A stretch of 54,087 nt of DNA, the filler included, from Catajapyx aquilonaris (Eukaryota): the NCBI GenBank assembly GCA_000934665.2. It is 2 parts of 2 records of this genome, joined end to end, with 100 filler letters (N's around TTAATTAATTAA, not from the genome) between each part and the next. Parts side by side here need not be neighbours in the genome. Positions count along the whole stretch, not along the records: positions 1 to 29,451 come from KZ539359.1; 1 more part is not named here. One strand, 5' to 3'. Under the pieces are notes generated by a model. It was not told the DNA's origin and did no database searches. It was given only the letters and a program-made list of their open reading frames with translations. Below are positions 6,323 to 46,900 of this stretch, one piece after another. A program made the translations under genes and the position numbers. Each line of letters begins with the position of its first letter. The stretch's first letter is position 1.

Positions 6323-6719
6323 TCCACACGCCCGTAATGTAGCCGCAATCGAAGAATAAAACTGTTGTCTCCTTGAAGTGAATATGGCCAATTGTCTCCA
6401 TAGGATTTTCTTTTCCTCAGCCATACAAAACATAATGATGTCAAATTCTTTGAGTCACATACTGTTCGCTTAAAACTATGCCAGCCGTTCCAATGTGATT
6501 TGCAATTTATTTTTTTGCCACAGACGCAGGTAGGCAGACAGGCACACATTATCGAGAGAACATTTTTGGAGCCGAATGAACAGAGGTCATGGGTATGGCA
6601 ACTTCTCCAGGCCCTCCAGGAACCAGTATTAATTAGCATAATTATTAGCAACTTCCACTAAAAAAATTAAAGTGCAAAACAATATTACAGGAACACACCT
6701 AACATGAAAAGGGTCAGAC

Positions 6720-7145: not shown

Positions 7146-7693
7146 AATGTAAAAAAGGGGCACATCCCCAGATCTTAAATAATCCAAACTTTGACGTCAC
7201 GAGTTTTTAAACAAATTTTGTGGCTAATTCGCCGTTAGCTAACCTGTCACCGGTGGAAAAACTTGATTAAATTTTAATTTAAAAACATACAAATCGCCGA
7301 ATAGCAATAGCATGTGGCTGTGAATGTAGCGGCGATTTCAAGCTGCGATCGCGGAGCGGCTATTTTAAAAGATGGCGCTAATTGACATTTGCAGCTGATT
7401 TTTTGGGATTTCAATTAATTTTTGGGCCTAAAAATGACAATTTTTGGCGGTTATGGGCTTGAACGTAATCTGCACACAATTTAGTAGCATTTGGTGTATG
7501 CAACAATGTCAGGCGATGACATTGTTGCATGCACCAAATGCACGGAGAGCACGGGTAATCCCGCTTCGAACATGATGATTAGGTAAATAAACATGAAATA
7601 AAATATGTTATGCAATCGTTGCAGGCAATTCTGACAAACTGAGCATGTGCAAGGTTACGTAACATCACTCACTGCAGACGTAGTATAGATCCA

Positions 7694-9004
7694 ATGGCCG
7701 CAGAGACAGAGATGAGCGCAGTGGACGCAGAGGTAAAGCCGCAACAATTATCTGCAAATAGCGCACTAATTTGTCTGCGATGTACCTTACAGGCGGACCT
7801 GTTTGCAAATGTTCCGGACAAGGTCATACTTCGGATATTCACGTACTTGACATGTACGCAGGACAAGGTTAATGCAAGCGGAGTGTGCAAGAAGTGGTTG
7901 AAAATTAGCGTCGATCCGATACTATGGAAGCAAGTTGAGCTGGACGGACGAGGGAGAGGTATGACCAAAGAGAAGGCGGTGCAATTGCTACGTAGAATGG
8001 GCATGCTGCGTACACTAGACTTGTCACATTGGCGTGACGGCGACGCCGATTTCATACTGGATGCGATCGAGGGATTCCCCGATCTGCAATCAATATCGCT
8101 AGTACATTTTGATAACGGCGTGAGTGTACACGCGCTCACCGAGTTTGTACGCAGGTTGGTTCACTACACCGGTTGTACTTATATTATCCTAAATTGTGGT
8201 CTTTCCCGTTGAAGATACGCAGCACAGATCAAATTGATGTCGGTTTGTTGGAGTGAATTTCCGGACGACTTTCCGCATCCGATGGACATCATGGCTCCTT
8301 GCCAGAACCTCCAGGAACTGTACTTGGACTTTAACTACTGCAAGTTTCGTACCCCGGACGCATCGCTACAGCGCAATTGGGAGAAGCTGACGATCTTCTC
8401 GTACATGCAAAAACCGGGGTGTACCGTCGATCCCGAGATTAACTTGATGGCGTCCAAGTACGGCGGACAGATTAAGGACCTGCGAATCCATGGCGATCTG
8501 AGCGACCAGGCTGTCCTACTGAAGTTTGATAAGTACGTTAAGTACGACCGCTTAATCGCTTTATTAATCGTTTTTTTTTTTCGCTCCAGGGCTGAGGAGC
8601 TGACCCTTGCCTTCTTGGGGATTCGCGACGACACTTTCCTGGAGTGGGTTGGAAAGCTGAACCTCCGCTGCCTCACACTCCAGGAAGTGCGGAAGTCACT
8701 GTCCGCATCGGCCATGTGCAATCTACTGTCCCTTCCGAACATAGCTAGTCACCTGCAGGAACTCACATTATGCATCGGAGTTAATGTGGACGACTCATGT
8801 CTAGCCGCATTGTCAAACTGTACGCAACTGACCAGTCTGTCTCTTGCTGAATGTCATGAAATTACGCTGACAGGCCTTCTGGATGTGGTTAAATCCTGCG
8901 AGTCTCTTCAGAACATCTGCGCTTACGATTGTCAGCAAATAGACCGGGACGAAGCCGCTAACCAAATTGCACAGGTCCGACCTGATCTTAATTTTGAAGG
9001 CTAG
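7694..9004 (+). CDS. F-box/LRR-repeat protein (FBXL-like), tandem copy 2. Exons 7694-7732, 7793-8154, 8215-8532, 8590-9004; 377 aa
   Basis: Same intron positions and phases as copy 1 (introns 60, 60, 57 nt). The spliced frame is intact (1134 nt). AATAAA at 9040-9045. Confidence 0.9.
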
Positions 9005-9143: not shown

Positions 9144-12100
9144 TTATATTATCCCGATCTTGTTGGCCACGTCAAGAGCATCGTAGTCTGGCGCAAGTTT
9201 GACGAAAGCCTTCTTCTTCCCATCAGGCCTGATCAAAGTGTTCACCTTCGATACGTCAATATCGTAGAGCTTCTTAACCGCCAGTCTTACCTGGTGATAA
9301 AGAGAAGTTAATTAAACCAGTGCCATTCGTGAAACTAACAGCGACACTTACTTGATGCTTGTTTGCCTTGGTGTGTACTACAAATACGAGTGTGTTGTGA
9401 TCCTCGATCTTCTTCATCGCCGCTTCGGTGGTGAGTGGGAAGCGGATTATGTTGTAGGCATCCATCCTGTTGCGATTAGGCACAGACTTGCGGGCGTACT
9501 TGGGGTTGCGGGGCAGGCAGAGCGTCTTGGGGCGACGGAATCTGACCTCCGTCCTCACCTTACGGCTGCGGGTGCCCCACGGACCCTTCAACACCTACAG
9601 ACAAAAAATGTGTTACCCATTGCATCGAAACAGTCGCGTTCATATCAGATGGCAGACTCAGTTTTAAAATGCTTTCTCGCTCATCCTTATCGGAGAGATT
9701 CCCGCATTTTGTCATCACCGTCTGCAGCTGTTAGCGTACTGCACTTTTAATAGGTCGTACCTTTCTTTGAACCCCAAGGGCCTTGCGGACCACGGGTTTA
9801 CCACCCTTGGCGGTCGCTTTGGCCACGGCAGCCCTAGCCTTTGCAGCCTGAGTGGTCGGCTTGGCTCCCTTCTTTGCTGCGGCTCCTTTGGCAGCTGGTT
9901 TGGCCACCTGCTTCTTCGCAGAGGCTGCGGTTGCCTTGCCCTTGGCCTGCGCCTTCCCTGCCTGCTTCCCCTTGGCTGCCTTAGCATCCTTGGCTTTGGC
10001 TGGCTGTTTCCCTGCGGCTGGTTGTTTGCCCTTAGCTGGAGCGGCCTTAGCTGGGGCTGCACCCTTGGCGGCTCCCTTAGCCTGCTTGGCCTCCTTGGTT
10101 GCCTTTGCGTCCTTGGCTGGCTTAGCATCCTTGGCTGCCTTGCCATCCTTAGCTGGCTTGGCGTCCTTGGCTGGCTTGGCGTCCTTGGCGGGCTTGGCTT
10201 CCTTGGCGGGCTTTGCGTCCTTGGCTGGCTTTGCATCCTTGGCAGCCTTGCCGTCCTTGGCCGGCTTGGCATCCTTAGCTGGCTTAGCCTGCTTGACCGT
10301 GGTGGCTGGTTCGGACTTAGCCTTGGCCGGCTGCTTGCCCTTGGCTGGGGCTGCCTTCTGGGGCTGGGGCTCCTTCTTCTGGGCGGCAGCTACATTTGCA
10401 GCGGCTGCTGGGGCAGGTGCTGGGGTCTTCCCCTTCTTCTCAGGTGGGCCCTGCTTCTTCTCTGGCTCCTTCTTCTCAGCAGGGGCCTTCCGCTTCTCAC
10501 CAGCTCCTGATGATCCCGAAGCCGATGCAGCAGGCTTGGCTGGTGGCTTCTTCTCATCCTTTCCTCCTCCTGTACAGGCAGAGCGAGATTGAATTGAGAT
10601 TCACAGATAAGGAAGCTTCGTGTGTGGAGCCGATTCTATCTCATCGGCCCATGCCTGGAATGAGTGAGACTTGCAGCTGATTATTCTTTGTCCATATTGA
10701 ATGGGTTCGGCTCATGTATGCCTGACAAGCCAGAGGATTTATTTTGAAGTGTGGAACGGGACGAAGTTTTATTTTGCTTTCATTATGTACTCACAGTTAG
10801 TGCTTACCCAGAGAGAGTCTATGAAAGTCGATTAGCAAACAGTATTTTTCGAAATTGAAGGAACATTCCTACTGCATCAAAATATTGTACAAGTTATTCA
10901 AAATAAGGCCAATAATGTTTGAGGACTGCACACTTCATGCCCAGTTAATTTCACAAGATAGCAAAAATGTAATTACACAGAAATTTCTCAAAGGGGAAAA
11001 AGTACCATAACGACGTATATTTTTAAAAAAACAGCATGATGGCGAGCAGAATATGTGAATTTTTCATACGTCGAGAAATGTCATCTAGGCTTACATACTG
11101 AACATTATTTGTCTAATTTTGAAAAACTCGCATATGTAGGAATGTTCCTTTGATTTAAAAACAATACCATCCGCTAAGAGACTTGCGTCTGTGTAAGCAC
11201 TAATTACGGAATAAAAAGTTAATAACTTGAACCTTAGTCACTCTTTATAAAAATGCTCTGGATCGTCTGGCTTGTATAAGCAGAGGCCATTCGAAATGGA
11301 CAAAGAATAATGAGCAAGTTTCACTGTGCTCACAAATCAGCCATTTTTATACCACACCCCAAAATTCGCCACTTGAGACATGCAACTGCAAAGTCGTCAA
11401 TTAATAAAACCCAGCCTGTTCCTCAAGTTGTGAAAATAATTAGTTGGGTCAATCCTTGTTTTCAAATTGCCACAAACGTCGCTTGGAACCTTCACAATTT
11501 TAATGGCAATTGCGAAATTGAGCCACGTATGGTTGACCACTGCTGCGTTTACATGTGAGCGATTTGATCAGCCACGATCGTTACTTTCACCCCCAAACAG
11601 TTGGTTTCATACTAACCAGCCCCATCTCTACCAGCCTAGCCCTTTGTGTTGAAGGTAGTTTAATATAATAAAGTCTCCGCCATGCGGGGAATGTGGCGTT
11701 GGCGAGCCCCCACAGGAATCTACTGGGGGGTTCGGTTCGGGTTGGCCACATTCGGAACCAACCCAAACCGTCCTTCCTCGGAGGGCGTTCGCAGGGTGGC
11801 TGGCAGCGATAGATTCCAGCGTCTAATTGATGATCTGGCGGAGTCTTTTGTATTAAACTACCGTATGACAGGAGTAACAGAGGGCTGATATAAACCAACT
11901 GTTTGGGGTGAAAATAACAAATCATTGTTAACAATAGATTTTCGCCCCAAGCGTCATTGCTGCACATCGCTGATCAAATCGCTTGCATGCAAATGCGACC
12001 TGAACTGAATTCGACCAACTTTATGTGCGCACATGGGTGTGGCACAATTAATCCCATTTGTAGCAATGCAATAGCATTAATTGATATATTCAGTTTATGG

Positions 12101-12669
12101 ACTGCCATCAAAACATTCCTATCGCCTATTATGTCCATTCGGAAAACCCCAGGAACCGCAGAAAATGCATGATTTTCCGTTGAAATTTTTACAACAGAAA
12201 GTTTAAATAATTAGCATAATTATTACACACAACCTGCACTAAAAAGTATAGTAATTACAAGTTTAATTAGCTTAATTATTAGGCACAACCTGTACTATAA
12301 AATTACTAGCTTAATTAGCATATTAGGTACAACCTGCACTAAAAATAGAGAAACACAATTACATTATTGTTAATTATTATAAAAAACGTGACGGAGCATC
12401 TCTAAAGCTGTGAACCCTTCCAAAAATATAATGAGTAAATTATTAATATAAATTTTAAACAAATCGAACACTCCAAAAAGCCCGTTCTAAGATGGCCGAC
12501 CACGTGGCCGGCACCCTAAAACCTCAATTCCCTTCTCCCTAAGGCTCCCCTAGGGTCTGCAGGTGTGTCAGGCCCGTGCTTCGGTCCCGCCCCGAGGCGG
12601 CCCAAGGGCGGAGGAGGGCTCCAGAGCAACTGAATGCGTCTCACCAGTTCCTTTTCCTTTAGGTCCCAT
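9144..12669 (-). CDS. RpL23A: 60S ribosomal protein L23a (uL23) with long H1-like N-terminal extension. Exons 12669-12645, 10569-9761, 9594-9352, 9290-9144; 407 aa
   Basis: Core [53 protein letters not shown]...[32 protein letters not shown] is uL23. Splice phases are consistent (1224 nt). Pyrimidine-rich start upstream of the ATG; minus-strand AATAAA at ~9111-9116. Confidence 0.96.
9652..9725 (-). ncRNA. Intronic box C/D snoRNA, SNORD79 (U79)-like
   Basis: In RpL23A intron 2, sense strand: terminal stem GCAGAC/GTCTGC, box C GTGATGA (9718-9712), D' CCGA (9693-9690) preceded by guide GCGGGAATCTCT, box D CTGA (9661-9658), ~60 nt from the 3' splice site. The guide is complementary to the conserved 28S GAGAUUCCC. 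Confidence 0.85.
10090..10290 (-). repeat. Coding 18-nt tandem repeat encoding about 10-11 (KPAKDA)-like hexapeptides in RpL23A exon 2
   Basis: Minus-strand translation [62 protein letters not shown]. Confidence 0.92.
10661..11326. repeat. Degenerate long inverted repeat (arms ~10661-10920 and ~11101-11326), possibly an old Tc1/pogo-type MITE
   Basis: Matching blocks: ttattctttgtccat/atggacaaagaataa, tagtgcttac/gtaagcacta, aaggaacattcctac/gtaggaatgttcctt, aataatgtt/aacattatt. The right end reads CAGTGAAACTTGC on the minus strand. Confidence 0.7.
11495..12082. other. Long imperfect fold-back with a GC-rich multi-hairpin apical domain (11675-11843) in RpL23A intron 1
   Basis: Nested pairs agcgatttgatcagc/gctgatcaaatcgct, ccccaaacagttggttt/aaaccaactgtttgggg, ggtagtttaata/tattaaactacc and ctccgcca/tggcggag enclose four hairpins. 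Confidence 0.8.
12205..12345. repeat. Three diverged ~50-bp tandem units (…ttagc…acaacctgcactaaaaa)
   Basis: acaacctg(c/t)acta recurs at ~12228, ~12285 and ~12329. Confidence 0.75.
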
Positions 12670-12689
12670 CGCTGCAAAAACGATGCGAT

Positions 12690-12820
12690 CAACGGCGAAG
12701 GAATGGCGAACGGGACGTGACGTCACGAAAAGGAACAGCGTTGCACCGAATGTTCACATCTGGCAGCACGCACCAGCCAGCCAATCAGACACGGGACAGG
12801 GCAACAACAGACCAATCACA
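12690..12820 (-). promoter_or_regulatory. RpL23A promoter: TCT/5'TOP-like start, CRE palindrome, twin CCAAT boxes
   Basis: Minus-strand CCATTCCTTCGCC at ~12706-12694, ~30 nt before the ATG. CGTGACGTCACG at 12716-12727. CCAATCA at 12781 and 12812 (31-bp spacing). YY1/Pho-like AAGATGGC at 12489 and 13228. Confidence 0.7.
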
Positions 12821-16700: not shown

Positions 16701-19378
16701 CCCGACGTGCTTCAACAGCTCGAGAAGATTCTTCTCCTGCACGCCCACCAGATGCAGCGGCATGAACTCCTCAGGCTCCTCCTTCACCTTGTGCAAGGGT
16801 CTGAGCAGCCACAAACTGATGTCGTCCTGGCTCGGGTGGTAATCCAGGATCCTCTTCGCCAGGCGGACCACGGGCTTCCACATGCCTTTCAGAAGGATGT
16901 CGGCAAGCCTGGTCACTGCGCCCGGAAGGGTCTTGGAGGTGACGAAACACAAGTCAACCGTTTCTTCATTCTCTGCGGAAAACCGACAGAAAAAGCAATC
17001 AGTCAGCAAGCAAAGACGGTGGTATGATAATGTTAATTAATCATCATTATCCTTTCACAGGCTCTTTCTCAAAAGACTGGGGTTTAAATGAGGATAATTA
17101 ATGCCGGACAATATTGCGGCTCACCTCTGACCTTCCACTGATCCAGCAGAGGATACACCTCGTTCATTATTTCAGGCCATGGTCGGATCCGTGGGGCGGA
17201 CTCCTGCGAATCCTTCAGCTCCTTCTGGCATCTCTGCAGGTTGTCCGCAACTTCTCGGAAGGGTATCTGAAAAAATATTTGCAAATGTATTTTTCGCATT
17301 TGCAACGAAGAATAGGTTGTTGGGCCGTACGGTTTGCACAATATGGTGGCTCATCAGTGTTGAAACAAGGTCCAACCCGCTTCTCTGAGCCGCATTGTTG
17401 GACCTCTGCTCCAGGAGGTTCGCACTCAGTTCAAATGCCTTCAGGATGAAATCGGGAGTCAGCTTCATGTGCTGAACCAGCCGACACACATGATGGATCG
17501 CCTATTTGGTTGGATTGGACTTAGCAACACAGAGTCAGCAACATTGTGACATTTTGATACCTCGAATTGTGTGGCGGAATTTGAGGTTTTAGCGTCGGTC
17601 ATCAGCAGGTTCAGAAACTCGCTTCTCTTATCCTTCTCCCGTTCTTCCAAGGCAGGTCCTTGCATCGTCGACACCAGGAGCTCGCATATGATCCGCTGCA
17701 GCCAGTGATTCTGCTGGTGCTGCAAAATAGACAACAACGACCTGAGACCTCGAGACGTGAGGTTTTGACGTATGCCTTTCTGGTATGTAAAGTGAATTAA
17801 CGACAATGATTGATTTCAGCCAAACATTTTACCTGGCCGAACAGGAGCGGTCGCAGGGCGTCAAAGTTGGCCAAGAAGCTTCTCGGCGAGTTCTTCACGA
17901 TCTCCAGAAGGAAACCTCCGAACACGTCCACCTTGAGGTTGCCCTTCCCGGAGAATGTGAATTCCGTCAAGCATGTGATCATCCTGTTGGCTGTCCCCTT
18001 GCAGAACGGGTCCCGCTCCAGCGACCCGACGAACTCCGCCAGTGCTCCGACCAAAAAAGGGTTGTCCTGTACCATCAGGAGGAGCTTCTTGGTGCATTTG
18101 AGACCGGAAGTGGCGGACTGGATCAGGGAAGTCAGGACGCTGGCCGTCTCCTGCTGCATCTCCTCCCAGAGGTTGTACGAAGGGTTTTGCATCACAACGC
18201 AACAGATGCCAATCAGCAACCTGTGCAAACCAGAGGGACATACTCAAGGCAATTATGAAGCGCTAATAAATTCGGCTCACTCCGAGACGGCTGATTCCAC
18301 ATGCAGGGCCTTCCACAGGTGATGGATTGGCAGCTGAAGCATTTCATGGAGGTATGCAAGGGCTCGGATTTTGTAATCGGTCCAATCTGCTTCCTGCGCC
18401 TAATTGGACAGAAATAATTACCATATTTGACGGCATACAAGACGGCCACGTTCAGGAAAAAGCGTTCTTCATGTATTGTTGCATATAAGAAGCAGGGTGA
18501 TTTTTTGAGCAATTTTTGGGGGGAGAAAGTGTGTGTCTTATATGCCGTCAAATACATTGCGGTTCAGATTATGCTTAATTGCATTTACTTCAGTTATGCC
18601 TGTGGTGCTGTACTTGAGTTCCATCTTTTCAATGAACTGAGCCAGCAAGTAGACGTTCATCTTGACCTTGTTTCTGTAGTCCCGACGTGTCTCATTGCTC
18701 AGCGTTTTAGTCAAAAGGCATTTGAGTTCCGGGACCATTAATTGCATAGCTGTCGATGCAAATCATGTCAAAAACAGTACAATAATTGAACACAATACTT
18801 ACTTTTTAATGCTATTTCGCTGTACAAGAAGGCATGCCCGACGTCCATATGTTCCATGAACGTCAAAGCACCATAAAGCTGGTCGAAGTAGACGAAGGTG
18901 AAGTTTGGCACCGAGAATTCCAGGTCGAACCTACAAACTGTAATGAACAGATCATGTAATTATTGTATGATGTAATTAGTCTTATCAGGATATGCAACCC
19001 ACTACGGCCAACCCAGAATAATGGTAACTGAAGTTGTCCGTAGTGGGTTGCATTATGATAAGGCAGATATCTCACCCTCGTATTTCTCAACTACATCAAT
19101 CGGAAGCATCAACTTCACCAAGTATCTCGGAGTGTCGTATAAAGCATCGTCTTCATGACTTCTCAGCAAATCATCAGGATTCTTCGGTATGATAAATTCC
19201 CAATTTCGGTCCAGTTCGCGGACAGATTCCTCCTGTAAATAATGAGCAATTATTCTAATTTTTCATTTAAGAAAACATGGCATTTTATAACAGTATGACG
19301 CACCCAACGTGTTGGGATTGGCCTGATCTCTTCTAGGGAAAGGCGTACCTGCTCCGGCTTGGTCTGTCCAGTTGCCAT
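13795..19378 (-). CDS. CAP-D2: Condensin complex subunit 1 (CAP-D2/Cnd1)-like HEAT protein, multi-exon, highly diverged. First exons 19378-19349, 19232-19076, 18937-18803, 18749-18589; last exon 13971-13795
   Basis: Collinear with recalled NCAPD2 motifs: WEFIIPKNPDDLL; YFDQLYGAL; YRNKVKMNVYLLAQFIE; DWTDY..LLQLPIHHLW-like; Cnd1 region LLFKLL..KDMTYTHPDVVNPLLPDLY.CL.CQNVKVRRKVLRTICELIL..LCLVDPDQEIVRNAQMLFVELAKR; RNLAFCISELSYTE. Junctions checked (exons 1-5, Cnd1 exons, last exon) are in phase. Middle exons were not all delimited. Confidence 0.85.
18419..18555. mobile_element. ~135-bp Tc1/mariner (Tc2/pogo-like) MITE in CAP-D2 intron 4
   Basis: TIR TATTTGACGGCATACAAGAC / GTCTTATATGCCGTCAAATA (19 of 20 matching). 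The left end TA-CCATATTT resembles TA-CCGTATTT MITE termini. Confidence 0.7.
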
Positions 19379-22211: not shown

Positions 22212-23066
22212 ACTTTTTCAAGAGGGACATGCAGGCTACTAACAGGCAACACTTTCATTACTACATAGCACAAAATAATGGCCACCATGTCAAATAAATT
22301 TGATCACAACAACGATCCATACTTTGGGAAGAAGAATTTACTTCATCATCATTCCCGGATTAACACTGTCATTCCTAATCACTCCAACAATATGAATTGT
22401 TGTACTTCACTCGCACGTGACCTTTTTGGTAAAAATTGCACCAGCTGTCCACTATTGTAATAAATACTATGAAAATAAATTTGCGCACATACGAAGCATC
22501 TATTTATTACACACTCAATAATATTAGGAAAGACTTACATGTGACTTGAATTTCAACTGCTAGTGAAATACGTAATTATACCGGATCGAAACATGTACCC
22601 ACGTCTTTGGACGTCACCACTACTAGTTATTTCATAGTAACAACCGTACAACTCGATATATCATATATGTTGCTGTGACATGTGTCCTGATTCAGATAAG
22701 GTGTTGCGTAGGGCTATATTCAGGCAAGTCCAGACCCTTATTATCACATCTATGCCATGCATGTCTATACAAAAGATAATGTCAGAAATAATCGCCACCC
22801 TTTCTGAAGTGTTATTACATATGACACTTGTAAACATTATTGGAACAATTCGGTGCACATGCACCTAGAAATCAGTTAGTAGCAACCAACCCAGAAGCAC
22901 AGGCCTGCTTTGAATCTGTCCCGAAATCTGCCTCTATATCAGATCTACCTTCTGGATGGAAAAAAAAAAAAATTTGTGCAAAATAATATTGTTGCTGGAA
23001 CATCTCACATCCTAACATTGTGAATCATAATCTATATCGAGTGGTATGTCTGATACTTATTGCATC

Positions 23067-29451: not shown

Positions 29452-29551
29452 NNNNNNNNNNNNNNNNNNNNNNNNNNNNNNNNNNNNNNNNNNNNTTAAT
29501 TAATTAANNNNNNNNNNNNNNNNNNNNNNNNNNNNNNNNNNNNNNNNNNNN
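29452..29551. other. Artificial contig spacer N44-TTAATTAATTAA-N44
   Basis: Exactly 100 bp and symmetric. The 12-mer gives stop codons in all six frames. Confidence 0.95.
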
Positions 29552-42540: not shown

Positions 42541-43493
42541 CGCACTGTTGTTGGCTTCTTGTCCACCCTCACCTGCAACTGTCCTTCGTCGAACAATGAT
42601 GCACCTTTCTACACCGTGTTACAGGATTTTTGTCCCACTTGCCCTGTACACCCGACACCCACTCGTGCATGTCTGAGCTGCTGCTACTGCCACACCGCAA
42701 TCGCCTTTTGTTCGTAACCTAATAATATTGCACACAAAAACACGGTTGGTCCACGACACGACCATGTGGCGTCCTGAGGATAGTCCCTGCCTCACTGTGC
42801 GAAAACATTGAGATAGGACACTGCTGCTGGAATGAATGCCACGCTGCATTAGCCTACATTTTTCTACTGGGCTTATGATTCATTAATTAGTCACTTGGGA
42901 AGGTCTGACTGGCATGACATGCTGTTGGAATTGTATCCATGGCGTATATGTTGCGATTTTTTGGGGACTACCGAAAACTGCATGCTCATTCCAACTTCCA
43001 AAGTCGAAAGTTTTCTACTCGATAGCATCTACGAATCTGATAAATTTAAGATTCATTACCGTATTTTGCGCATAATAGTGTACATATCACTGAATACATT
43101 TAAGGACTTAGAACAGAAAGAAACAAAAATAAGTAACTATATGAACTCTGCATGAAGATGATGTCGCGTTTTCTAACTTTTAGAGAAATCTCATCAGTTC
43201 ATTGCTTCCCCTTGTCTCTAAAGTATCTTATACCGTACTAATGAGTATTAAGATATACACAGTGATGTTTTCTGTATATTACGTGAGGTGTACACAGAGT
43301 TGATATTTAGAGGATTAAATTATTTTTGTGTTTTTATTCCGTGCAATGACTGACTTCAATTACTCTCCATCTATACTGTAAGTGCACAGCTCTCGTAGAT
43401 GCAAAGAAACGGTTTACATGGGATCCATCAAGCATATTTGCCTTTGAATCCAACTATCAGCTTGCACCCTATATAATTTTTTAAAGTAGGCCT

Positions 43494-43927
43494 ACACTGT
43501 ATACTCCTGATTATCCGGGTGCGGATTTTCCGTGCATCGCCAAAAAATTAAATTTAAAATTAAAGTCCGAAAAAATGTGTCGAATTTTCGTCCCACTTCT
43601 AGATATTGCTAACTTAGCAGTACCGCAGTGCCAACACTGGCAAGTTACTGCTAAGTTAGCAGTATAACTTAGGAGTGGGAGGAAAATTCCGCCCACTTAA
43701 ACCAACGAAGAAATGTAAGACATTTTCTAGAAGACAAAGTAAAAATCTATGGTAAGTTTTATTATTCTGATTCAACCAAAAAGCATACTGTCTATACAAT
43801 AGTAGGCCTATTGTACATTTAAAACTTGCGAGTAGCTCATTTTTTCACGATTTCGAGGACCATTTCCCGATTATCCGGAAACACCCGTGCAGTCATTAGC
43901 CCGAATAATCGGGAGTAAGTTTACTGT
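43494..43927. mobile_element. pogo/Tigger-like MITE, degenerate TIRs
   Basis: Left tactcctgattatccggg versus right (revcomp) cagtaaacttactcccgattattcggg. Internal repeat cccgattatccgg at ~43866. Confidence 0.6.
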
Positions 43928-46900
43928 GTATTGTGAGTGTAGTTGTAAAGTACACCATCTCTTAACTTAATTGTGTGCACTATACTGAAAGCATATATTG
44001 CTCAAAGCATTAGGACACTGTAGATAAGTGTTCACCTGTCGCACTTGCAGCATGGGATGTAACACTGCTTCTGGATCTGGCTTCATCTTGAAAGTGCTTG
44101 ATCATTAATATAATTAATACTTCCTTTTTCTATTTTCAATTACAGTACACAAACTCGATGTTACCAGGCTTTATTGCAGCCGTGAAATTTTTTATTTGCA
44201 ATTGTATACAAGTATAGCATAAATCATGGCGGAAACTTCCATAGTGCAAGAAATTTTTCTGGGGTTTCCACTGTCCCGAATTCTACGTGATCGTGAATGT
44301 CTCCTCGTCCTGCACGACTGCTGCGGACCTGCTCCTTCTGGACTTTCATATTGCGACGACATTGCCCGTGAATGAAACATGTATAAATTGCTCAATTTTA
44401 CTAAGAAACCTCTGACCAAGGAGCGTTATTAAGTTGATATTTGCACGTGCTCTTCACGCTGACGTGAGCAAGTCTGTGATGCTGTTGTATACATTTTGGC
44501 TGCACGTTGATCCTGCCGCAGATTGTCACGCAATAAATATTCAATAACATCATAATCTCTGATGATAGCCCATGTTGATGACAGATTCGTACCGTGCCGG
44601 GAAATACATGTATCATGTGTCACTGATACGGTACTACTGAAGAGTTGCACACGCAGACTTGAAATGAATTGTGTAATAGGGTTAGATTTGGCGACATTAT
44701 TTTGCATGAAGGATTTGTATCTAGAACTGATTTTTTTTTGTACGTGTGGCACATGGAATGCCGTTTTGGCATGAATCATATCTGGCACAATATGCTGAAT
44801 ATATAGGTTCGGTTGTGCAGCTGCTGGTTAGTGATGTAATATCTCGGAATGTAGATATCTCTGGTCCTGTGATGCTTGCCGGTTCTTAGAATGTGACTTA
44901 TATACGGGCGCGGAGTTAGTCCAGTTTCATCGAGTAGCCTTCGGTCACATACTTGCTCCGTGAATAAGAGACTCTTAATTTGCTGGCTTCGGCACTGACA
45001 CTCCAGCACGGGTGAAGGTCCACTCGAGACATTATAATCGTATGTAAATAGGCCGCGTTGCCAACGTGCGTGCAAACGCGATGTCATCAAAATCAGGGAC
45101 AAAGGTGGCCTTTTCGCCTTGTGGCCGTGACTTGGAGCAGGGTATTGCAACAGCTTCTATAAAGGATGAGGAACAGTTAGCCGGCGGCAGGTCCAGAGGC
45201 AATATGTATTGGGACAGGTCCGTGACACGATGGCCGGCTGCTGCACTTCACTAAGCTGGAGTCATTATGTCCCCCAATAAGACCTGCTGTAAATCATCCT
45301 ATTACCGTTGGTGGTGAAAGCGGAGGAGTTGGGTTGTAAAAGGGTTGGAAGATTTCAAAAGTCAACCCTTCCCGGAAAGGCTTCCCTTTTGGAGAAGGGC
45401 AGCAGGTCGGTGCCCCTTGGCCATATCCCCTGCTGGAAGCACTGTGCTAACCCAAATGGGGAGGTTCAAGGCAGTGTATTTATGAAGGTCACAAAATTAA
45501 TGTTTTAAAATATTGGTCATCTCTAAAAGTGCATTGCAATATATTGTAAAAGAATGTACAGAATGTGCAAGCAGAATTTTATGATGGATTAATTTGGTTT
45601 AATGGTCACCTGGATGAATGCTTATTGCAAAAACTAATCAACCCCAAGATTTTCAGGAGGATTTTTGGAAATGTCTGACCTGGATATAGCTGCAGAACGC
45701 AATGAAGTCAACAACTTTCAGGAAATGCAATTAGTCCTCCTAGATATTTCACATTTTTTTTGTTGTGTGTGGGAGCTCACATCGACTTTTAATAGACTGG
45801 TGACGGTGCATAAGAACCTTTCCCACGCGGTCGTTGTAGTTACTTCTTATCCAGCCCACACCCATTTTGGGGTCAGTTTTCTGTCCCGGCCTCCAGCGAA
45901 GGAATGGAGTTGCCAATTTCTTGACAGATGACTGGGTCGAATTTGGCAATTGATAGACACGAAATAGGGCGCGAAGAGAGGCAGATAGGGGCGGGGGAGG
46001 AAAAGAGAAAAGGGTGAGTTCTCACGCTGAAAGTATGCGGACGTCAAACGTCCATGCAAAGCAGAGCGGATTGGACACGCCAACAAGAGAGACAGAGAGG
46101 CACAACATCAGGAGAATGGGTCCTCTCCTGCATATAAAAAGTGGATGTAGGAGGGGGGGAAAAAAGGAGCAATGGCGGAAGAAAGGAGAGCGGGGGTGGT
46201 ATAGGTATAGTTAGAGCGGATCTCTGTCCGTCCGTCCAAGCATGGCATCAGCAGTATAGGAGAGTAGTAGCACCGAGTTGCGCAGAAAAGAGGGCAACGG
46301 TAGGGCGGCCGGGATTGGGGTTCTGTTGGCTTTCATGGCTTCATGGCCCCCGCACATACACACGTGACCGTGACGCCCATTCACGTCATGCTTCACCAAC
46401 ACCCGCCATCATTCTTCCTTTACCCAACATTATACTGCTGCTGATGCTGATGCTGCTCAGACTCAGATTACATGATTACATGAGTCTTATCTGTTCCAGA
46501 TATGGGGGTTTGTTGTCTCGAAATTGGTCGACTTTCTGTTGGGAATCCTGTTTTCGGAAGTCGGACGAAACATTTTCAGCAGCATAGGTCAACAACGTCC
46601 GGGATCAGTTCAATGCGAGGAAACAATAACGACAAGGGAATGTGCACAAGTTTCTTTTCTTGAACCTGCTCATATTATTGAGGCAGGTAATCCGGTATAA
46701 CTTCTCCCCCTGTCCATCACTCTTGGACTTTGATATTTGGCAGTGCACAACACTGTATACTGGAAATAAACATTTCATTTACAGTACATGTACAGTTAGC
46801 ATTTGTGGCATATTGGTTGAAAGTATACGGTAGTTGAATAAATGGTTGGCATTTTGTATGTTGTAAACTCACAAGTAATCCACCATGAGTGCAGCAAAAG

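Follow-up and report, generated by a model that had tools for sequence, protein, structure and literature searches.

Intron 1 of RpL23A (uL23), a ribosomal protein gene of Catajapyx aquilonaris, carries a 454-nucleotide (nt) palindromic element at positions 11543-11996 of the stretch of DNA that we analysed (the window: 54,087 nt of assembly GCA_000934665.2, joined from two parts of two records). A sequence-only reading had described a larger stretch, 11495-12082, as a rod of about 600 nt topped by a kissing-loop and pseudoknot domain, and had offered three readings of it: a novel noncoding RNA (ncRNA) or ribozyme, an autoregulatory element of the ribosomal protein gene, or a structured mobile element. 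The third of these is backed by the copy number, by the ends of the element and by palindromic copies elsewhere. We conclude that the element is very probably a composite, probably nested, non-coding repeat of the foldback type, which resembles a miniature inverted-repeat transposable element, or MITE, and consists of at least two dispersed families.

The intronic palindrome is repeated in many places

Contigs were aligned to positions 10560-12700 (2,141 nt) at a likeness of at least 80%; they come from four public runs on this species. Three of the runs (X1-X3) are DNA runs of one sample; the fourth (X5) comes from another sample, whose kind is not on record. The numbers of matching contig pieces are 261 for X1, 253 for X2, 267 for X3 and 20 for X5. 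In X1, 45 pieces are at least 99% identical to the locus, 46 fall between 95 and 99%, 87 between 90 and 95% and 83 below 90%. All of the extra depth is confined to 11496-11999, where summed depth amounts to 7-80 times that of the single-copy flanks; every bin outside 11496-12071 has a value of 19-50. Summed contig depth, which is not equal to copy number, is highest at the left end of the element (bin 11496-11567: 1633, 2103 and 2656 in X1, X2 and X3, with flanks of about 20-37). It is 310-473 in bin 11568-11639 (about 13 times the flanks), 878-1248 in bin 11640-11711, 1243-1804 in bin 11712-11783, 167-321 in bin 11784-11855 and 161-273 in bin 11856-11927, and then 655, 836 and 1000 in bin 11928-11999 (all for X1-X3). 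Up to 40 distinct contigs share one variant (11748 A>G in X1), which indicates dozens of non-identical copies. Many decaying copies in which the loop-loop pairs are not conserved were among what the sequence-only reading had named as refuting its proposal, and this is essentially what we find, with 253-267 pieces per DNA run spread over all identity bands.

The element has defined ends. In each run the matches of 8-13 contigs break off at 11542 (left) and 11996 (right). The loose ends of these contigs continue for a median of 189-255 nt and are mutually unlike (agreement 0.48-0.56), which shows that they are different flanks and that one repeat occurs in many places. The contigs of the locus itself break at 11543-11571 and 11746-11775, as expected, because the 31-mers in these stretches are common to other copies.

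The element shows three features of a MITE: its terminal inverted repeats (TIRs) at 11545-11572 and 11969-11996 are 86% complementary, its many copies lie in differing contexts (the 253-267 pieces per DNA run), and it is small and has no coding capacity. None of the four stop-to-stop open reading frames (ORFs) across or beside it matches Pfam at E ≤0.1.

Several observations weigh against this explanation. There is no clear target-site duplication; the only match is the 4-nt GACC, and it requires shifting the left end to 11539. Neither an empty-site allele nor a joint from 11543 to 11996 is among the 15 joints listed of 26. No autonomous, transposase-encoding partner was found, a negative that has no transposable-element library or whole-genome comparison behind it. 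The loose-end consensus reads ATAAA before 11543 and AGCTTTA after 11996, which indicates that other copies reach a few bases further and that the true termini of this copy are uncertain. A search of the 54-kb window for further copies (blastn, word size 9, E ≤1) returned only the element itself and its arm-to-arm matches. Finally, the three base states that perfect the proposed pseudoknot in this copy, discussed below, are each in the minority among the copies, at about 13%, 37% and 27% of depth. Confidence in any superfamily assignment is low, because there is no clear target-site duplication, empty site or autonomous partner and because the last few bases seem to differ from those of other copies. 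Exact-pattern scans gave no loci either for a 31-nt core motif in metagenome and viral contig collections or for a 21-nt TIR motif in metagenome and genome contig collections.

The repeat is very probably a composite of an outer and a core family

The outermost parts of the element, the left TIR at 11543-11579, which has the highest depth, and the right TIR at 11954-11996 (depth 655-1000), with which it pairs, are its most repeated and most conserved parts. We term this outer family A. Several contigs run straight from 11562-11572 to 11954-11966; the two ends enclose other content or, in one case, only GATCA. These end-to-end joints reveal a family of small elements that have just the TIRs in common. 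Other contigs join 11572 to 11894/11895, so that the right middle arm follows directly after the left outer end, and the right middle arm therefore belongs with the outer family in some copies. This arm spans 11863-11953 (depth 161-273 in the bins of 11856-11927). Its counterpart, the left middle arm at 11580-11640, has a lower copy number, and its part 11580-11607 pairs with 11892-11918; it represents either family A in a long-arm form or a layer of its own, B.

The core belongs to another high-copy family, here termed C, which is itself palindromic. Its left arm, 11645-11723 (depth 878-1248), is defined by other copies and by a palindromic X5 contig. Matching pieces of other core copies extend over 11645-11775, 11648-11775 and 11670-11794 (16-20 mismatches), and in the 282-nt X5 contig 11671-11723 on the + strand is followed after 43 nt by 11671-11777 on the − strand. 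A contig with the core arm on both strands is a palindromic copy of the core. The left arm is followed by a GC-rich asymmetric spacer (11724-11809), which holds hairpins 2 and 3 of the core and one strand each of hairpins 1 and 4, and by a degenerate right arm (11810-11862), in which TAGATTCC, TGGCGGAG and the complement of GGTAGTTTAAT follow one another and of which 11836-11862 pairs with 11654-11682.

We infer the order of nesting, the mechanism of transposition and the absence of a host function as follows. The outer family would have supplied the TIRs at 11543-11579 and 11954-11996 and probably the middle arms too, and the second palindromic family would lie inside the outer element as its GC-rich core (about 11645-11862). 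When a palindrome receives an insertion close to its centre, its stem becomes longer. Stacked layers would in this way give the 454-nt rod, with the GC-rich spacer of the inner family at its tip; the rod would exist because each layer is itself an inverted repeat. Mobilisation is presumed, from the class of element, to have depended on a trans-acting transposase able to recognise these terminal repeats. The present copy would be a passenger in RpL23A intron 1 that is spliced out with the intron.

The inverted repeat is real and shorter than proposed

The motifs at which the arms had been said to close, CTCCGCCA and TGGCGGAG, are present at 11675-11682 and 11836-11843, and so are the imperfect arms. 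A repeat search pairs 11545-11572 with 11969-11996 (28 nt, 86%), 11580-11596 with 11902-11918 (17 nt, 88%), 11591-11607 with 11892-11908 (17 nt, 100%), 11654-11675 with 11841-11862 (22 nt, 82%) and 11665-11682 with 11836-11853 (18 nt, 83%). The minimum free energy (MFE) of the 588-nt stretch 11495-12082 is −227.6 kcal/mol on the + strand, compared with −169.4 ± 6.4 for shuffled sequences (z −9.1), and −226.3 kcal/mol on the − strand (z −7.7). The GC content is 0.54-0.56 at 11600-11899 and 0.26-0.43 in the surroundings, in agreement with the GC-rich core that had been noted. Thus motifs, arms, z-scores and the rise in GC establish that the inverted repeat and its core are real.

The proposed length of about 600 nt does not stand. 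Pairing between 11495-11542 and 11997-12082 is at chance level (ddG −9.2 versus −5.4 ± 3.1; 20 of 200 shuffles are as good), and both stretches are single copy in the contigs of the DNA runs. Since the outer 48 and 86 nt pair at chance level and are single copy, the rod comprises about 454 nt (11543-11996), the only part above chance, with an MFE of −198.5 on the + and −194.1 on the − strand. Within it, 11543-11579 pairs with 11954-11996 at a ddG of −28.1 (z −7.9; none of 200 shuffles as good) and 11580-11682 with 11836-11953 at a ddG of −41.1 (z −8.7). A permissive alignment of the arms (195 of 237 aligned positions, 82%) was discarded, because it over-extends into the flanks and this extension is chance by shuffles. 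A strict minus-strand self-blastn finds only the neighbouring palindrome 10663-11325; it misses the rod because indels break the arms.

The sequence-only reading had also seen an excess of G.T pairs on the + strand, hinting at a folded strand antisense to RpL23A. We find no such excess: there are 19 G.U pairs in the MFE structure of each strand, and the gapless arm blocks contain four G/T versus three A/C mismatches in 102 positions. Both strands of the whole element fold equally well; only the core folds somewhat better on the + strand.

The kissing loop belongs to the arms, and the pseudoknot is not kept in most copies

Folded alone, the core (11683-11835, 153 nt) has an MFE of −66.7 (z −2.6) on the + strand and −54.1 (z −1.9) on the − strand. 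The four small hairpins that had been proposed, at 11707-11729, 11733-11770, 11769-11787 and 11799-11820, are found in the + strand MFE structure, at most one base off these positions. The two long-range complements exist as well. GGAATCTA (11715-22) is perfectly complementary to TAGATTCC (11810-17) over 8 nt, and GAATGTGGC (11689-97) to GCCACATTC (11745-53) over 9 nt. The 153-nt core thus contains two complementary words of at least 8 nt, where 0.17 are expected from 2000 dinucleotide shuffles (P about 0.013). What fails is their reading as a kissing loop and as a conserved pseudoknot.

The 8-bp pair is enclosed by the closing stem. Twelve X1 contigs whose match extends to 11723 go on as the reverse complement of 11795-11809; such continuations occur in 9-12 contigs per DNA run and agree with each other at 0.92-0.93. 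Therefore, in other copies the right arm mirrors the left arm up to GGAATCTA. Because it is nested in the closing stem, the "kissing loop" is the innermost surviving symmetry of the arms and no independent tertiary contact; the inner end of the core family's own arms accounts for it. In the present copy 18 nt (11818-11835) appear, from the loose ends behind 11723, to replace the stretch that should mirror 11683-11714. Other copies also have about 11 nt, after about 11793, that are missing from this one, as the loose-end consensus at 11775 and 11723 shows.

The 9-bp "pseudoknot" is perfect in this copy only by virtue of three states that most copies do not share. Most copies have T in place of G at 11693 (37 contigs, with 910 of the 1048 depth in X1), G in place of A at 11748 (40 contigs in X1) and C in place of A at 11750 (39 contigs). 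With the majority states at 11693, 11748 and 11750 the helix consists of six Watson-Crick pairs, one wobble and two mismatches. Hence the majority of copies differ at three of the nine pairs, and the pseudoknot is not a conserved feature. We take the three perfecting states of this copy to be due to chance or to conversion between similar segments.

Among the variants listed in the proposed helices, those at 11693, 11716, 11717, 11726, 11727, 11739, 11741 and 11750 break pairs, those at 11709, 11748 and 11753 give wobbles, and 11738 C>T in other copies restores a pair that this copy lacks. Most of the listed helix variants among family copies are one-sided. The sole possibly compensatory variants listed are 11734 G>A with 11769 C>T, both of them CpG transitions. 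Compensatory changes that keep the helices are not what the family copies display, as 11693 and 11750 break the 9-bp helix. Moreover, the sequence that contains the 3' strand of hairpin 4 is not shared by other copies. The four hairpins and both long-range complements would be by-products of palindromic ancestry and of local decay in this copy, namely the 11-nt loss and the replaced inner right arm.

The element lies in intron 1 of RpL23A

The gene that hosts the inverted repeat is encoded on the minus strand. The coding part of exon 1 spans 12645-12669, with the ATG at 12669-12667, and its frame joins the exon-2 ORF (9731-10600). Exon 1 ends at 12645 and is followed by GTGAGA; exon 2 starts at 10569 and is preceded by TGTACAG. 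An X5 contig confirms the junction: from 12644 on, its next 30 letters are the same as those with which exon 2 begins, and its exon 1 depth is 184. The copy-specific parts of the intron have no X5 coverage, which we count neither for nor against any reading. From the sequence and this contig, intron 1 therefore extends from 10570 to 12644 (2,075 nt; GT at 12644-12643, AG at 10571-10570). Pieces of downstream ORFs match the domain Ribosomal_L23eN (E 5.7e-17), and their best match among solved structures is chain 4v6w_CX, "60S ribosomal protein L23A" (E 3.9e-37), which we take to be a chain of the fruit-fly ribosome. The placement in RpL23A intron 1 given by the sequence-only reading is thus borne out by the domain and structure matches and by the junction contig. 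The palindromic element is about 650 nt from the splice donor and about 970 nt from the acceptor.

Exon 2 (9731-10569, minus strand) encodes an N-terminal extension of about 280 residues that is rich in Lys, Ala and Pro, resembles histone H1 and contains short repeats; it has no Pfam match. At 9800-10500, the extension explains both the strong AT skew and the GC content of 63%. An ORF of 263 codons (8213-9004, +) with a leucine-rich-repeat-like look lies immediately downstream of RpL23A on the opposite strand; no homologue was found for it at E ≤0.001 among proteins of 144-461 residues.

Alternative explanations

A functional structured RNA would fold into the core hairpins, the kissing loop and the pseudoknot; it could be a novel ncRNA or ribozyme, an element for uL23 autoregulation or an intronic gene of the small nucleolar RNA (snoRNA) type. 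In its favour are the excess of perfect complements in the core, the z-score of −2.6 on the + strand and the 9-bp complement that is perfect in this copy and absent from most others. We nevertheless consider such an RNA extremely improbable: the core is part of a repeat with many copies (one variant is found in up to 40 distinct contigs), the pseudoknot is broken in the majority of copies, the listed helix variants mostly break pairs or give wobbles, and the 3' strand of hairpin 4 is not shared. The core strand that folds better is, moreover, antisense to the only known transcript. An Rfam 15 scan of the whole window at gathering thresholds yielded no match, and neither did a scan across the intron at E ≤5; the sequence-only reading had seen no RNase P/MRP P4, signal recognition particle (SRP), hammerhead, twister or canonical HDV cores. 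Lowering the threshold to E ≤10 for 11300-12300 gave four chance-level matches (11.8-14.4 bits versus thresholds of 30-154). One of them is a 47-nt fragment (11639-11685) and the other three are outside the repeat; none is to a ribozyme, snoRNA or RNase P/MRP/SRP family. With no Rfam match, no strand bias and a core fold marginally above shuffles, neither the novel ncRNA or ribozyme nor the autoregulatory element that had been suggested finds support.

A different possibility is that the repeat was exapted as a source of hairpin RNA. Its predicted imperfect stem of about 200 bp, transcribed within the abundant RpL23A pre-mRNA, might be diced into endogenous small interfering RNAs (siRNAs) or a microRNA-like product that acts on repeat copies in trans, or the stem might modulate the splicing of intron 1 by looping out about 450 nt. 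The long stem is predicted on the sense (minus) strand too (−226.3 kcal/mol, z −7.7), the host is a ribosomal protein gene, X5 contains its spliced mRNA (depth 184 at exon 1), and the many related copies are possible targets. The arms, however, are only about 82-86% complementary and have many bulges, unlike the near-perfect stems of known hairpin RNAs, and repeat ancestry fully accounts for the structure; we consider this origin quite unlikely. It is decidedly unlikely that this particular copy, in the first intron of a very highly transcribed gene, was co-opted, so that its stem of about 200 bp would serve as a small-RNA source against its own repeat families or would tune RpL23A splicing. 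The states at 11693, 11748 and 11750 could then reflect selection on the RNA fold instead of chance.

The element might also be a dispersed repeat other than a TIR transposon, such as a Helentron-associated or DINE-like element, a foldback derived from a short interspersed nuclear element (SINE) or a palindrome generated by recombination. In favour of this, no target-site duplication turned up and there is no known transposase partner. DINE-1/Helentron elements, as described in PMC4067079, have subterminal inverted repeats and a stem-loop. Yet ARAGORN finds no tRNA-like unit in the window and Rfam gives no tRNA, 5S or 7SL match at E ≤10. Conservation and repetition both peak at the two ends, beyond which the mini-copies contain little; this is the pattern of a MITE. 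We regard a repeat of one of these other kinds as very unlikely.

Two more specific candidates were rejected. A tRNA or SINE origin of the core was dismissed, since ARAGORN predicts no genes and the B-box likeness of GGTTCGGGTTGG has three of nine specified positions mismatched, as judged by eye. A box C/D snoRNA on the + strand (TGATGA at 11828-33, CTGA at about 11885) has no terminal stem, is on the wrong strand for an intronic snoRNA and has no Rfam match.

Other palindromes and repeats in the window

Nor is the rest of the intron unstructured. A second imperfect palindrome of about 660 nt occupies its acceptor-side third (10663-11325; arms 10663-10919 and 11101-11325) and adjoins the reported element. 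Its strength is equal to that of 11543-11996 (z −9.4 on the + and −12.7 on the − strand for 10660-11330). Unlike the latter, it is at single-copy depth (about 1-2x) in the DNA runs. A second haplotype is seen at 11142-11302, with seven differences.

A palindrome scan of the window shows three peaks, at about 11000, 43625 and 11825. The peak at 43625 (scan score 26.5) is the centre of a third long palindrome at about 43275-43975, with fold z-scores of −5.6 and −6.1. Near the donor end of the intron, an AT-rich direct repeat (12208-12345) comprises three to four copies of about 38-56 nt (TAATTAGC..ACAACCTGCACTAAAAA), and a related stretch is found at 6622-6664. Short inverted repeats occur at 7487-7541 (25 nt, 96%, 5-nt loop), 18424-18554 (30-nt arms, 71 nt apart) and 22636-23057 (25-nt arms, 372 nt apart), and these look like small MITE-type elements. 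N runs at 29452-29550 (119 N in the window) are bordered by sequence of the TTAATTAA type.

Discussion

Foldback elements such as Drosophila FB and Galileo have long imperfect inverted arms, are usually kilobases long and have internally tandem-repeated arms. As in these, long imperfect inverted arms make up most of the RpL23A intron element and a rod fold is possible; the intron element differs in being shorter than 0.5 kb and in having no tandem subrepeats seen in its arms. The arms of Drosophila hairpin RNA loci, which give rise to endogenous siRNAs, are near-perfect and derived from the target gene. The likeness to these loci is a long inverted repeat that could be transcribed into a hairpin, whereas the arms in the intron are about 82-86% complementary and come from dispersed repeats without coding similarity.

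For Anopheles gambiae, 32 clusters of MITE-like elements are described in PMC3212995. Their lengths range over 430-1678 nt and their TIRs over 18-204 nt; six are palindromic, and certain subfamilies have common TIRs and differing interiors. The P-derived MITE families described in PMC1562414 have 5-310 copies and unrelated internal regions. Our element resembles both groups in being non-coding, hundreds of bases long (454 nt) and palindromic or furnished with long TIRs. It further resembles the mosquito MITE-like elements in its dispersed copies, in its common ends with differing interiors and in its location in or near genes. It differs from the mosquito families in that no target-site duplication or master element is shown for it. 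Compared by description, not by sequence, the element appears to fit the mosquito MITE-like elements in every testable feature. MITEs inserted into MITEs, including in mosquito, and the multimers of maize and rice (Jiang & Wessler 2001) are summarised in PMC5172404. Like these, the intron element would be a composite with one small inverted-repeat element inside another; unlike in these, the nesting here is deduced from steps in depth and from copies with the outer ends and no core.

The element is thus very probably a mobile-element relic of an already known kind, and not a new structured RNA; the family to which it belongs here is unnamed. Beyond annotation its significance is small. It illustrates that stacked palindromic transposon relics alone can yield a striking "rod with pseudoknot", so that for long intronic hairpins in this genome the copy number should be checked before an RNA function is proposed. 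Should the stem in fact act as a small-RNA source or on splicing, the element would be a modest case of transposon co-option in a housekeeping gene.

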